NCBI GenBank assembly: GCA_963835065.1
Contig: CAWIEK010000071.1
Location: forward strand, 1-56,068
DNA length: 56,068 bases
Direction: 5' to 3'
Source of the DNA: an uncultured Chthonomonadaceae bacterium
Lineage (GTDB): Bacteria > Armatimonadota > Chthonomonadetes > Chthonomonadales > Chthonomonadaceae
Shown: positions 14,860-52,989 of the stretch, in pieces
How the letters are laid out: each line of letters starts with the position of its first letter
Position numbering within the stretch: the first letter of the stretch is position 1
Made by a program: the position numbers and the translations under genes
Notes under the pieces: generated by a model
Seen by the model: only the letters and a program-made list of their open reading frames with translations
The model's database searches: none
What the model was told of the DNA's origin: nothing

Positions 14860-16551
14860 ATGGCTGTCACCGCGCAGGCTTCCCCGGTTGGTTCGGCTCG
14901 CAAGCCGCAGCCGCGTCATGGGGGGGTGATTGGGGCCGGCCTGTTGGCATTGCTGGCGCTGTGCTTTGTGCTGCTGCTGCACACGCGGCATGAGCCGCTG
15001 GAAAACAACATGCCGCAGTACGCGCTGATGGGGCATGAGATACTCGGCGGACGTCTGCTGTACACGGATATTTTCGACCAAAAGCCGCCGGCCATTTACG
15101 GAACCTACATGCTGGCGGAGATGGCGTTTGGATATAACCGCGACACCATTTTCTATTTGGAACTTATCGGCGTGGGGATTACGCTGCTCGGCGTGTACAA
15201 GGCCGGCGCGTCCCTGTTTGAAGATCGGCGTTGGGGATTATGGGGGGCTGCCGGGTACGCGCTTGCCTGCGGCGACATCGCCATTGAAGCCAATCAGCCC
15301 AATGCCGAAGTGTTCATTTCCGCTTGTTTGGTGTGGGGATTTGCGCTGCTTATCGGCGGAAAGCCTAAAGTCGCCACGTTTTTACCGGCATCGGCGGCTG
15401 GACTGCTGTTCGCGCTGGCAACGCTGTACAAGCCGAATGTCGTGGTTGTGCCCCTGCTGTTGATGACAGTTTATGTGGCTTTTCCACCCGGCGGCGCGGG
15501 CAATCGGCGGACTGCATTGCGCATGGCGCTGTGGATTGTGAGCCTGATTGCCCTCGCGTGGGCGGGCGTGTGCCTGTACTTCGCCGCGCATGGCCGGTTT
15601 GCCGACTTTTATTACGCGGTTGTCACGTACAATCAGGCGTATGCCGGCAGCCTGACCAAGAACCTGCTTACCGGCCTGCACCGCAGCCGTTGGGATGCCC
15701 GCTTTTTCCGCCTGTTTACCCTGTGCGGACTTGCCACTTTTCCCCTCGGCCTGCTGTCATGGAAATCCCCCGCCCGTTCCGCGTGGCTGCTGCTCTGGGC
15801 GTTCACGCTCGGCGCGTACATCGCCGTGATTTTGCCGGGACAGTATTTAAGTTACTATTATGTACTGCTGCTGCCGCCGCTGATGGTCGGCCTCAGTTGG
15901 GCGGGCGGCACACTGGCGCAAGCCCGCCCGCCGCAAACGCGGTATGCGGCGCTGGTTCTGGGAATTGCCTGCGTGGGCTTAATCGCGTGGCGCGAGTTGA
16001 AGTTTCAGCGCCAAAGCGTGGCCGAACTTTCTGTCAAAAAATACTCCAACGACATTTTTGTCCGCGCCGATGCGGTTGCGCATACTATCAACACGCTGCT
16101 GCTGCCCGAAGAAATTTTCTACGATGCGTCCACGAACCCGGAATTGTACTTCACGAGCAAGCGTCCCCTGCAGGCGGGCGTGTTCTATTCTGTGGCAACC
16201 GTGAAGGGACCCCGCGCTGAAGCATTTGCCGACAAGATTATCGCGTCCCTGGAGCGCCATCCTCCCGAACTCATCAGCCTGCGCGAGGGGTACTACATGA
16301 CGCCCCCCGATGACCGCAATCCGCGCATTTACGCCTGGATACGACAACGCTATGTTCCCCTGCCGTCGCAGTATCAGATAGAGCCGTTTGTGCTGCTGAT
16401 GCGGCGTGACGGCGTTTTGTCCCGGCGTCTGCCTGTCGCGCCAACGGTTTCGCAAACGCCGCCCTCCGCCCCAACGCAGAAGAACACTGTGAAGCCGAAG
16501 CCAACAACCAGGGCCGGCGCCTCTAAACGAGAAAAGAAAAAGAGTATGTAG
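14860..16551 (+). CDS. ArnT/PMT-like (GT-C) membrane glycosyltransferase
   Basis: LYTDIFDQKPP, NAEVF and AGLLFALATLYK motifs, many TMs, and AAGGAG before the ATG at 14860. Confidence 0.8.
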   Translation: MAVTAQASPVGSARKPQPRHGGVIGAGLLALLALCFVLLLHTRHEPLENNMPQYALMGHEILGGRLLYTDIFDQKPPAIYGTYMLAEMAFGYNRDTIFYLELIGVGITLLGVYKAGASLFEDRRWGLWGAAGYALACGDIAIEANQPNAEVFISACLVWGFALLIGGKPKVATFLPASAAGLLFALATLYKPNVVVVPLLLMTVYVAFPPGGAGNRRTALRMALWIVSLIALAWAGVCLYFAAHGRFADFYYAVVTYNQAYAGSLTKNLLTGLHRSRWDARFFRLFTLCGLATFPLGLLSWKSPARSAWLLLWAFTLGAYIAVILPGQYLSYYYVLLLPPLMVGLSWAGGTLAQARPPQTRYAALVLGIACVGLIAWRELKFQRQSVAELSVKKYSNDIFVRADAVAHTINTLLLPEEIFYDASTNPELYFTSKRPLQAGVFYSVATVKGPRAEAFADKIIASLERHPPELISLREGYYMTPPDDRNPRIYAWIRQRYVPLPSQYQIEPFVLLMRRDGVLSRRLPVAPTVSQTPPSAPTQKNTVKPKPTTRAGASKREKKKSM

Positions 16552-16785
16552 AGAGATCGTCGAAATCTTGGCAATGCAGCGCTTCCAGCCCGATGTCTCG
16601 TTGTGTCTGGTTGTAGAAGAGAGGCGTCGCGACCTCGTAAGCGTCAGGGCGAACGGGGAGAGGGTACAGGCATCTTCCAGCACCTCCTTTCCTGAGTTGA
16701 TAGTTGATAGTTGATAGTTGAGAGGAACTCCGAACTTCAACGTCCCGCCACCTGGCTGATGAGCCTGTCTAGTTAGTAGACGTGT
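16531..16785 (-). ncRNA. Putative structured RNA, copy 1
   Basis: Homologous to 43317-43550 with a 57-bp identical block (16558-16614 = 43343-43399). It has a conserved upstream promoter, 5'/3' complementarity and a U-rich 3' end. Boundaries are approximate. Confidence 0.5.
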
Positions 16786-16791
16786 GTATAC

Positions 16792-16822
16792 TTAGACGAG
16801 GCAGATGCAGAGAAGGTTCATT
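16792..16822 (-). promoter_or_regulatory. ECF-sigma-type promoter GAACC-N16-CGTCTAA
   Basis: Both boxes and the 16-nt spacing are identical in copy 2 while the spacer sequence differs. Confidence 0.65.
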
Positions 16823-17044
16823 CGTTGCTGCTATTTGTGCAGATATTTTTCTACTCTTTTGCGCGTTCTTTTTGGATTGGGCAGCCGGGAGGAAGGAGCA
16901 GGCGCAGGACAGGGACGAATGACCTACGATGGGATACGTGTTGAGCATTTTAGATGCGCCGACCCTGAGCCAACAACAAAAAAAGCCCCTGCCCGTCACT
17001 AACAGGTATACTAGAATCAGTGTGACGCAAGGAGAGAACAAGAA

Positions 17045-35701: not shown

Positions 35702-36665
35702 GAATCTATCTCAAAATAAGCGAGTGGCCTGCCGATGATAAAGTTACGACTACTTTTTTGGAGTGACTTATGGCGCAGACACCCTCTTTACCGACGATCT
35801 GGCGTGTTCCCGACGAGTTATGGGAACACATTCAGGCGTTGATCAACCAGTACGATCCCCCTTGCAAACGCGGACGCAAGCGCATTGATGCCCGTCTTGC
35901 TCTCAACGGCATTATCTACCGAGCGCGTACCGGCTGCCAATGGAACCAACTCCCGAAGGAGTTTGGCGACGATGCCAGCATCCACCGCACCTTGCAGCGG
36001 TGGGAGAAGCTGGACTTGTTCGGCAAGTTGTGGGCGGTTCTTCTGCGCAATTGCGACTTCTTGGGCGGCGTAGAGTGGGACTGGCAATCTGCCGATGCCT
36101 GCCTGAGCAAAGCGCGCGGTGTGCCTAAAAAGGGGCACAAGACGACGCCTGTGTCGGTCCCAATCCCACGGATCGTGGGAAGCAAGGCGTCAAAAAGAGC
36201 CTTTTAGTGGAAGGCGACGGCGGGCCGACCGGCATTTGTATCAGCAGCGCCAACACCAATGACGCGCATCTGCTCGCGGCCACGATCAGCGCGGTGGTGG
36301 TGTACCGTCCGCAGCCCACGCCCGAAGAACCTCAAAACCTGTGCCTGGACAAAGGCTATGACAATCCGCGTGGGGAAGAAGCCGCTAAGAAAGCAGGCTA
36401 TACGCCCCACATTCGCCGCATTGGCGAAGAAAAGAAAGACGAAGCGGGCGAGAAAACGCATCCGGCGCGGCGTTGGGTGGTGGAGCGCACGTTTGCTTGG
36501 CTGTCGCGTTGGCGCGGCATCCTCATCCGGTGGGACAAAAAGCCCAGCAACTACCTGGCAACCTGCAAACTCGCCTGTGCCCTCCTGTGGTTCCGCAAGT
36601 TGCACGTATTAAAGCAAGAGGTCATCTTGCCCGTTGCAGAGCCACTTTCGTTTTGAGATAGATTC
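35702..36665 (+). mobile_element. IS5-family insertion sequence (IS1031/IS427-like), 964 bp
   Basis: Perfect 15-bp terminal IRs GAATCTATCTCAAAA / TTTTGAGATAGATTC and a TAA duplication (35699-35701, 36666-36668). Confidence 0.92.
35770..36656 (+). CDS. IS5-family transposase in two ORFs joined by a probable -1 programmed frameshift
   Basis: IIYRARTGCQWNQLP in ORF1; LDKGYD and RWVVERTFAWLSRWR in ORF2 (-1 frame); AAAAAGGGG at 36127-36135. Confidence 0.88.
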
Positions 36666-42697: not shown

Positions 42698-43204
42698 ATG
42701 ATGAAGGACAAAAGCGCGGACAAGAAAAACGAGGCTCCGCGCGATTCAAACGCGAAGAAAATGATTTCGGTCAACCGCCGCGCCCGGCATGAGTTCGAGA
42801 TTGAAGATACGTATGACGCAGGCATGGTGCTGGTCGGCACGGAGGTCAAATCCCTGCGCGCGGGGCGGCTGAACTTTGTGGACTCCTTTTGCCGCATTGA
42901 ACGCGACGAGGTGTGGCTGTACAACATGAACATCACGCCCTATGAGCAGGGCAACCGCGCCAGTACGGTGGAAGCCAAGCGCAAGCGCAAGCTGCTGCTG
43001 CACAAGTGGCAGGTGCGGGAACTGCGGACGAAATCCGAGCAAAAGGGGCTGACGATTGTGCCGCTTGCGCTGTATTTTCAGCGCGGGTTTGCCAAACTGG
43101 AAATCGCGCTGGCAAAAGGCAAAAAACTCTACGACAAGCGCGAAAGCATCGCGGAACGGGATCAGGAGCGCGAAACCCGGCGTCAGTTCGTCAATCGTGA
43201 GTAG
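42698..43204 (+). CDS. smpB: SsrA-binding protein
   Basis: NRRARHEF, AGMVLVGTEVKSLR, RKLLLHK and KGKKLYDKRE. Confidence 0.97.
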   Translation: MMKDKSADKKNEAPRDSNAKKMISVNRRARHEFEIEDTYDAGMVLVGTEVKSLRAGRLNFVDSFCRIERDEVWLYNMNITPYEQGNRASTVEAKRKRKLLLHKWQVRELRTKSEQKGLTIVPLALYFQRGFAKLEIALAKGKKLYDKRESIAERDQERETRRQFVNRE

Positions 43205-43316
43205 CCCGTTTAGGCATCAGGCATCAGGCATTAGATATTAGGCGGCAGATACTCGTCATTTATCCGCGTTGGCGATGGTTTGCAGACCGGGCAGAGCGCG
43301 TCGAAGGCTGTATCCT

Positions 43317-43550
43317 GAAAAAAAAGAAATATGTAGAGGCAGCGTCGAAATCTTGGCAATGCAGCGCTTCCAGCCCGATGTCTCGTTGTGTCTGGTTGTC
43401 ATAAGAAGAGGCGTCGTGGCCTCAGAAGCGTCAGGGCGGATGAGAGTGTACAGGCATCTTTTTGCACCTCCCTTCCAGGTTAGATTGTTGAGAGTTGGAG
43501 GGAACTCCGAACTTTCAACGGCCCGCCACCTGGCTGATTAGTATACATTT
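43317..43550 (-). ncRNA. Putative structured RNA, copy 2 (convergent with smpB)
   Basis: Homologue of 16531-16785. Confidence 0.5.
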
Positions 43551-43557
43551 GTACCTT

Positions 43558-43588
43558 TTAGACGCGATGCAAACGATAAAGGTTCATT
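43558..43588 (-). promoter_or_regulatory. ECF-sigma-type promoter GAACC-N16-CGTCTAA
   Basis: Same boxes and spacing as 16792-16822. Confidence 0.65.
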
Positions 43589-49763: not shown

Positions 49764-49904
49764 GGAAGTTGATAGTTGATAGTTGATAGCCGATGCCGCG
49801 TCACTGGCAGTTTCCTGCTTCTTCCAACCGGAGGCACAAGGCTAACATACTGCGTATTTCCTATCAACTATCAACTATCAACTATCAACCACAAGGAGCT
49901 TGCT

Positions 49905-52917: not shown

Positions 52918-52989
52918 TAGGGATACGGGGAATCGAACCCCGGTTAACGAGCTGAGAACCCGCCGTCCTGACCGCTAGACGATATCCCC
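52918..52989 (-). tRNA. tRNA-Glu (anticodon CTC), CCA not encoded
   Basis: GGGGATATCGTCTAGCGGTCAGGACGGCGGGTTCTCAGCTCGTTAACCGGGGTTCGATTCCCCGTATCCCTA folds as a cloverleaf. Confidence 0.95.

Follow-up and report, generated by a model that had tools for sequence, protein, structure and literature searches.

The window and its two copies of a repeated element

The window analysed here is the whole 56,068-nucleotide stretch of contig CAWIEK010000071.1 (assembly GCA_963835065.1) from an uncultured Chthonomonadaceae bacterium. It carries, on the minus strand, two copies of a compact element in which an extracytoplasmic function (ECF)-type promoter is followed by a strong Shine-Dalgarno (SD) sequence, a mini-ORF (open reading frame) of 8–16 codons, a hairpin, a 3' domain of approximately 60 nt with a near-invariant 15-nt loop, and a U-tract. 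An earlier note on this DNA had described the pair as a duplicated unit and a candidate gene for a structured RNA. The 57-bp identical block, CCCGCCACCTGGCTGAT and GGAACTCCGAACTT reported there are present in both copies, as is GAACC-N16-CGTCTAA (16819-16792 and 43585-43558, minus strand); the U-rich ends, the TATCAAC expansion and the shared motif upstream of the promoter are likewise present, and the blastn match of copy 1 to copy 2 (E 5e-60) is far past chance. The element is neither a two-copy duplication, as its core matches many more places in the genome, nor purely non-coding, as it carries a conserved SD and a translated-looking mini-ORF, which the note had missed.

Copy number and range

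The 57-bp core matches 162 places in the genome of the window (G000), of which the window copies are two, and the 160 copies with full flanks made up the set analysed. A profile search of G000 returned exactly 162 matches at E<=1e-30 and none between E 1e-30 and E=1, so there are no decayed copies; with a median identity of 89% between nearest copies, there was no recent burst either. We built a covariance model from 46 diverse rows and searched 68 genomes of the order. Three of these were positive, all from the same genus: G000 and its two congeners (Chthonomonadaceae), G001 with 13 matches and G002 with at least 47 (and 46 exact matches to the loop pattern). Homologues, which the earlier note proposed to seek in this genome and in other Armatimonadota, were accordingly found in the former and in the two congeners; the model found none in the other 65 genomes of the order. 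In 401 genomes of the phylum, a pattern search gave, beyond the genus, only two single one-mismatch matches in other families, which is the control rate. A metagenome scan with a degenerate pattern yielded 117 loci, 80 of which were checked by the model, none exceeding 14 bits, and viral contigs gave 0 matches. Among the matches listed in named records, 25 of the 26 rows belong to Chthonomonadaceae and the 26th (L121) looks chimeric. The element is thus confined to one genus, as found in the genomes searched.

The L121 sequence, in a Solirubrobacteraceae record, is a 5'-truncated piece of approximately 190 bp, with an interrupted gene of the penicillin-binding-protein-like kind on one side and an unrelated, oxidase-like gene on the other. 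This piece was not counted as a horizontal transfer and is probably an assembly (long-read) chimera.

Promoter

ECF-dependent promoter classes have an AAC-type -35 and a CGTC-type -10 consensus. The element carries a -35 of the GAACC/GCAACC type and a -10 of (C/T)GTCTA; in 143 of 152 copies these are set apart by one of two adjacent distances, and the sequence between them is free. The genome-wide scan suggested by the earlier note bears out a promoter-bearing unit: 132 of the 159 strict matches in G000 fall inside elements. A broad ECF regulon was considered and rejected, the 27 strict matches outside elements comparing with 26 and 26 in controls, and only 5 of 6,212 host upstream regions reach the 10th-percentile promoter score of the elements. 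Profiles of the SD/ORF and of the 3' domain each link to all 162 copies, with no orphan at E<0.01, and the promoter profile has 156 matches linked to copies and 3 orphans; the SD/ORF and the 3' domain, therefore, never occur apart, and the promoter rarely does. The leader is variable, and the predicted RNA measures 171–257 nt (5th–95th percentile).

The best, if weak, upstream promoter matches among sigma-factor genes are at G000 C69:22507-23280 and C28:41192-41785 / C53:569792-570385, which makes these genes candidates for the cognate sigma factor.

A different upstream region, CCTTCTAAA, is found in L056, L060, L064, L070 and L072 (G001), L073 (G002) and G000 C57:111123. In the five G001 variant copies, CCTTCTAAA is followed by CAACATATAGT, which resembles an NrdR box, and the ORFs have 15 codons with GTG, CTG or TTG starts. 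At least two types of promoter have been joined to the RNA core. Another promoter-variant copy, in which ATG reads ATT, lies with a neighbouring gene in a tandem duplication of approximately 1.1 kb (G000 C30:36931 and 38023).

Mini-ORF

The mini-ORF ends in [R/L/H]-[S/P/A]-P-stop. The stop codon is in frame in 145 of 150 parsed G000 copies (10 were not parsed), and 147 of 152 copies have a whole number of codons from ATG to stop; MFHPSRSP, encoded by 50 copies, is the most frequent peptide. By contrast, the spacer that follows the stop differs in length by -1, +1 or +2 in 33 of 160 copies, and a change by 3 is never seen. Outside G000, a search that required Pro-stop gave 47 distinct copies, 45 of them ending in Pro-stop and 2 (G002) in Ser or Thr. 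An in-frame start follows an SD-like motif in 44 of the 45; one of the 44 (G001) has an internal stop and one is mis-parsed. These copies encode the proline by CCC (20), CCT (11), CCG (8) or CCA (6), use all four CGN Arg codons, and stop at TAA (22), TGA (22) or TAG (1); their peptides span 8–16 aa, for example MLHLLPLPP and MPTRTPRDGLYSRPP. The x-Pro-stop ending is conserved, with synonymous variation. In 96 of 146 folds, the main pairing partner of the SD is the ORF. Production of a longer protein by readthrough, or by a +1 frameshift at CCC-UGA, was rejected because the spacer is not of constant length and because TAA is the stop codon in half of the relatives' copies; in the 3' domain, every forward frame meets a stop in at least one row.

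In an ORF set for the G000 host from a crude purpose-made gene caller, none of 4,942 ORFs ends in [RHL][SAP]P-stop, as opposed to approximately 11 expected, and PP-stop is depleted as well (5 vs 26 expected). Avoidance of these endings suggests a strong termination penalty in the lineage.

3' domain and RNA structure

Within the 3' domain, 46 of 64 positions are at least 98% invariant. When 18 named pairs were scored on an alignment of 46 rows, the same rows from which the tested structure had been derived, 95.9% of cells paired, and compensatory changes in 4 of the 18 pairs amounted to 20 cells vs 4.2 in shuffles (0/500), with all slid controls lower. RNAalifold predicts only hairpin H1 and two apical pairs. 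Of the helices listed in the earlier note, the GAGG/CCUC hairpin (H1) is supported, with 99% of cells paired and an A-U to U-A change. The pairing of 5' CGUUGAA with 3' UUUCGACG cannot be a general one, since the leader contains [CTG]GTTGAA in no more than 36 of 160 copies; when folded, each of the two window copies uses GUUGA to close a local hairpin. No canonical intrinsic terminator or terminator hairpin was detected by a terminator scan at the U-tract.

The description of the RNA as belonging to no known family agrees with Rfam, including its 6S, RNase P, SRP, riboswitch and ribozyme families: searches with its covariance models of the window at the gathering threshold, of copy 2 at E<=10 and of 7 diverse loci at E<=1 produced no credible match to the element.

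Mobility and genomic neighbourhood

Copy 1 is a bona fide miniature inverted-repeat transposable element (MITE) with ISAs1-type ends that takes up 459 bp (16509-16967); its inverted repeats measure 19 bp, and the 10 bp of AGCCAACAAC are duplicated perfectly; target-site duplications (TSDs) of ISAs1 are approximately 10 bp long. The statement in the earlier note that terminal inverted repeats (TIRs) and TSDs are lacking consequently applies to copy 2 but not to copy 1. Copy 1 sits in the last codons of the upstream host gene, and the orthologous gap of G002, a short one, contains no element. In G002, the same repeat type bounds, with 0–1 mismatch in the TIR, a 1,271-bp ISAs1 element (L032 1390-2660, PF13808+PF01609) that has no TSD. 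The core is absent from the ISAs1 loci examined, no autonomous core-bearing element was seen in G000, and PF13808, with four matches in G002, was not found in G000 (a genome 92% complete). Paired TIRs are present in 17 of 160 copies, including copy 1, and absent from the other 143, including copy 2. Among the 17, the TSD match is 10/10 in 6, 9/10 in 3, 7–8 in 4 and <=6 in 4. The 117 copies of subfamily B have ragged flanks, with TIR and TSD signals not above shuffled pairing. Elsewhere in G000, an ISAs1 TIR followed by a short transposase remnant lies at C48:46866 (-), and further orphan ISAs1 TIRs occur on C3, C7, C16, C37, C49 and C63.

Pairwise identity among 15 MITE copies is 95.5% in the 3' domain, 86.5% in the SD-ORF, 77% in the upstream body and 74–83% in the TIRs. 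The earlier proposal that the RNA is under selection accordingly stands as far as it concerns the conserved promoter spacing, some covarying pairs and a 3' domain kept far above the transposon wrapper; folding stability is not special.

Copy positions mostly differ between species, for the part of the G002 copies that was compared, and L073 and L122 are among the few loci flanked on both sides by the same genes as a G000 copy. Where the two adjoining genes run in one direction, the element is antisense to them in 63 cases and sense in 24 (p=3.5e-5), a bias to be expected if transcribing or translating it interferes with neighbours in the sense orientation. The downstream gene is convergent in 100 of 159 cases, and convergent genes often end <=100 bp away. 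We found no gene family common to the downstream positions, and neighbours are not conserved between species.

Expression

Words of the element occur at a small share in six RNA runs and one possibly RNA run, the shares in X1, X4 and X7 being no evidence. Four metatranscriptome runs gave one contig each, from relatives, at a depth of 2–5 and unstranded. Two of these contigs (157 and 186 nt) lie wholly within the predicted RNA. Together, these data are a weak hint of transcription; induction by stress and a minus-strand transcript, both put forward in the earlier note, would follow from the promoter motif.

Features of the window

Table 1. Features of copy 1 and copy 2 of the element in the window
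Feature	Position	Strand	Basis or remark
Target-site duplication, left, AGCCAACAAC	16499..16508	.	10/10 identical to 16968-16977
Terminal inverted repeat, element 3' end, ISAs1 type	16509..16527	.	One mismatch to an end of the G002 ISAs1 element (PF13808+PF01609), L032 1390-2660
U-rich tract, probable RNA 3' end	16528..16544	-	Sequence; no canonical intrinsic terminator in terminator scan; RNA contigs X5, X6 end ~16548-16556
Conserved 3' RNA domain	16545..16603	-	Irregular stem GAGAC.../...GUCUC + UGGAA/UUUCG around loop AGCGCUGYAUUGCCA (16583-16569); compensatory changes; low ensemble probability
Hairpin H1, GAGG-N8-CCUC, just 3' of stop codon	16621..16636	-	99% of cells paired; A-U to U-A in 5/46 rows
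Mini-ORF MPVPSPRSP*, Pro-stop end	16644..16673	-	Frame and ending kept across copies and species
Shine-Dalgarno AGGAGGT, 8 nt before ATG	16682..16688	-	Tends to pair with mini-ORF
Variable 5' leader: second GTCTAC motif, subfamily-A hairpin, TATCAAC expansion	16689..16791	-	Start ~16785 predicted from promoter
ECF-type promoter GAACC-N16-CGTCTAA, copy 1	16792..16819	-	Genome-wide motif and profile matches
A-rich upstream region and MITE body, including the upstream shared motif of the earlier note	16820..16948	-	77% pairwise identity, MITE copies
Terminal inverted repeat, element 5' end	16949..16967	.	Inverted-repeat match
Target-site duplication, right	16968..16977	.	10/10 identical to 16499-16508
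Copy 2 U-rich tract	43318..43329	-	Sequence
Copy 2 conserved 3' domain, invariant loop 43368-43354	43330..43388	-	Sequence comparison
Copy 2 hairpin H1	43408..43423	-	Sequence
Copy 2 mini-ORF MPVHSHPP*	43431..43457	-	Sequence
Copy 2 Shine-Dalgarno GGGAGGT	43466..43472	-	Sequence
Copy 2 ECF-type promoter	43558..43585	-	No TIR/TSD around copy 2; convergent with smpB (42698-43204)

Apart from the element, the window contains a tRNA gene (52918-52989, minus strand), its sole Rfam match, and a PF01609 transposase fragment (36168-36590) with several near-identical copies in the genome. Abundant heptamer tandem repeats (408 TATCAAC doublets, 214 CATCCTT doublets) and a REP-like hairpin, GCACTTTCCTGCCGG (74 exact occurrences), are found genome-wide, with sites in the window at 16697-16720, 43213-43232 and 49767-49889. 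Around the element, they frequently form nested arrangements with further MITE-like ends.

Proposed role and alternatives

Any account of the element has to accommodate what is observed directly, namely its architecture, the coding-type conservation of the mini-ORF, the MITE packaging of a subset of copies, the intactness of the unit and its orientation bias. We tentatively favour, while stopping short of calling it probable, a genus-specific, mobile, multicopy stand-alone RNA gene in which a stalled ribosome shields a functional 3' domain and which has spread by transposition. As the promoter motif suggests, an ECF sigma factor would transcribe an RNA of approximately 170–260 nt under stress. 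A ribosome would load at the strong SD, translate 8–16 codons and terminate slowly at x-Pro-stop; the ORF is conserved, and stalling is proposed by analogy with the NSP-stop/NAP-stop and pheL/ybeL peptides. RNase J is present, and the parked ribosome could then block its way from the 5' side and could keep the SD and ORF from misfolding with the 3' part. The functional domain would consist of H1 and the irregular stem with its 15-nt loop and, judging from its conservation, is most likely a protein-binding site or a decoy; a protein-binding role is proposed for the loop because no pairing target emerged. Copies would spread as DNA with their own promoter, the ISAs1-type MITE route being seen in approximately 10% of copies only, and selection would keep the unit intact from promoter to 3' end while the flanks erode.

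Several observations weigh against this interpretation. Among 57 sigma-70 region-2 matches, there is no sigma gene with a strong upstream match to the element promoter. The third metatranscriptome contig begins near the predicted start and extends 182 nt beyond the 3' end, the fourth reaches 255 nt upstream into dissimilar sequence, and all such contigs could stem from carried-over DNA of a repeat with 100 copies. Host depletion of the peptide ending, measured on crudely called ORFs, comes mostly from L[SAP]P, as R[SAP]P alone expects only 2.6. The covariation check called for in the earlier note was favourable for the number of compensatory cells but not for the number of covarying pairs, which was not above shuffles (101/500), and the rows are related. 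The z-scores of the minimum free energy (MFE) are unremarkable (0.38 and -1.10 for the folds of the two window copies), and the main long helix has, in the copies of G000, a mean ensemble probability of only 0.23–0.37 and one pair that fails to match in 81% of these copies. Given these weak fold statistics and the many invariant positions, the 3' domain is strongly conserved in sequence and only moderately supported as a structure. Duplexes of the invariant loop with 16S, 23S and tmRNA were no better than shuffles (49, 20 and 18 of 100), genomic matches to the loop were not telling, and no binding partner turned up. Finally, all four gametes occur at 12 of 21 pairs of polymorphic sites, and gene conversion probably contributes to homogeneity within the genome; within-genome conversion is nevertheless insufficient because synonymous and compensatory changes run across three species.

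Those mosaic alleles also bear on the idea that the element is a selfish or near-neutral mobile repeat without host function, whose features serve its own copying or persistence or whose cargo is homogenised by gene conversion. A real MITE form with TSDs, species-specific positions, restriction to one genus and the insertion of copy 1 in the last codons of a host gene would all fit such a repeat. We nonetheless regard it as unlikely: 143 of 160 copies have no paired TIRs, subfamily B shows no TSD or inverted-repeat signal above shuffles, the core is absent from autonomous ISAs1, synonymous and compensatory changes are shared out over three species, and there are neither fragments nor signs of a recent burst. 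It seems similarly improbable that the element is a brake on translation, with some 160 RNAs trapping ribosomes or peptidyl-tRNA-Pro on ECF induction and slowing growth, in the manner of a CreT-type toxin or a hibernation device, while the 3' domain regulates, stabilises or releases. This would explain why host genes avoid the ending, as well as the extreme copy number and the almost dedicated promoter (reached by 5/6,212 host upstream regions), and the strong SD, mini-ORF and hairpin recall CreT (PMC12737573). It sits poorly with the fact that the 3' domain and not the ORF is the most conserved part, with the tendency of the ORF to sequester the SD and with the spread in copy number among species, 13 at the lowest and 162 at the highest; a link to an antitoxin or to CRISPR was not seen, and no search was aimed at one.

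The antisense bias (63 vs 24) and the convergent genes that often end <=100 bp away could also be read as marks of a portable cis-acting module, either an orphaned pheL-like attenuator leader or an ECF promoter cassette that rewires neighbours, mostly by antisense or convergent transcription, or titrates the sigma factor. Leaders of the pheL type likewise end in CCC_UGA (PMC3082878). We consider such a module quite improbable, as 100 of 159 downstream genes are convergent and share no common family, neighbours differ between species and there is no terminator hairpin. Hardest to credit is that the RNA is the trans-encoded msr-msd of the type XIII retron of this genus, or consists of retro-copies of it. 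All 3 genomes of the genus (3 of 3) have the retron reverse transcriptase (RT), immediately upstream of which nothing resembling an ncRNA is seen, and a precedent, proposed for Nannocystis repeats, is cited in PMC6868368. The same RT, however, is present in 4 genomes where the element was not found, the element has no conserved end-to-end a1/a2 stem, no long msd hairpin and no similarity to the RT loci, and copying through RNA would leave behind the promoter, which here is part of the unit that is copied.

The type XIII retron RT gene is located directly behind a SWIM-BRCT gene (L295, G000 C50:52482-56034; L293, L294, L296-L299). These loci have no room for an upstream msr-msd: the genes overlap in four genomes, and a repeat hairpin lies there in this genus. 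At a further locus, L292 (G000 C49:679-684 kb), genes that by inspection of their sequences encode a Cas2-like protein, a separate RT and a Cas1-like protein are inserted beside the ribosomal protein operon.

If the stand-alone RNA gene that we favour is transcribed and its mini-ORF stalls ribosomes, transposition would tune the dose of an RNA regulator, arrest peptides would be used without a downstream gene, and natural termination-arrest sequences could be very short (8 aa). It is a more doubtful possibility that the element represents a new class, in which approximately 160 transposon-amplified RNA genes make up nearly the whole regulon of one ECF sigma factor, display a conserved RNA domain once induced and form, from selfish DNA, a dosage-tunable RNA brake on translation via Pro-stop stalling or a ribosome-anchored decoy. 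A literature search, to which most subscription papers were out of reach, returned no description of the element; motif lists in the supplements of RNA-discovery papers could bear on its novelty.

Comparison with known systems

The smpB gene beside copy 2 raised the possibility of a tmRNA. This candidate was rejected: ARAGORN places the real tmRNA on contig C15, neither Rfam nor ARAGORN matched the element to tmRNA, and the adjacency is not conserved, no copy adjoining smpB in G001 or G002.

Like ISAs1-family MITEs, 17 copies have 19-bp CAGGG-type TIRs that match the G002 ISAs1 element, and 9 of the 17 have 9–10/10 TSDs. Unlike in such MITEs, only the ends are shared with the insertion sequence and the interior is a complete transcription unit; approximately 90% of copies have no TIRs, and conservation is higher in the interior than in these repeats. 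Bacterial small RNA (sRNA) families usually have few copies, and sibling or dual-function sRNAs under ECF control (LhrC, Qrr, SgrS, GsrN) number from a few to approximately 15. The element resembles these siblings in comprising paralogous small RNAs with a common promoter motif and a conserved loop; they differ in that they are not known to be transposon-borne or to have a stalling mini-ORF.

The CreT small RNA has a downstream hairpin, as does the element. CreT, the RNA toxin of a type VIII toxin-antitoxin system, also shares with the element a strong SD and a mini-ORF in a small RNA (PMC12737573); the element, in contrast, needs no tandem rare Arg codons, was seen with no CRISPR locus or CreA, and has an ECF promoter, a very high copy number and an extra conserved 3' domain. 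Tagging by tmRNA at Pro-stop is reported for pheL and ybeL (PMC3082878). The pheL attenuator resembles the element in its short ORF, which finishes with Pro-stop, frequently as CCC UGA, and has hairpins and a U-run behind it; unlike it, the element, dispersed at 162 places, has no run of a single amino acid, no canonical terminator and no downstream operon (PMC3082878). Neither the co-oriented conserved downstream operon nor the terminator of an attenuator leader accompanies it.

The peptides NSP-stop and NAP-stop arrest while the stop codon occupies the A site (PMC10987492). As in these and in RAPP-like peptides, the mini-ORF of the element closes with [S/A]-P-stop at the C-terminus, and Arg or His takes the RAPP/HAPP position; they are long upstream ORFs with localisation signals ahead of sec genes, whereas the element has stand-alone ORFs of 8–16 aa without a regulated gene (PMC10987492). 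The TIR-bearing subset is made up of ISAs1-type MITEs, and the family as a whole fits none of the RNA, leader or toxin families tested. Known arrest peptides regulate an adjacent gene; here a promoter, a predicted stalling mini-ORF and an RNA domain stand alone, in 13–162 copies per genome.

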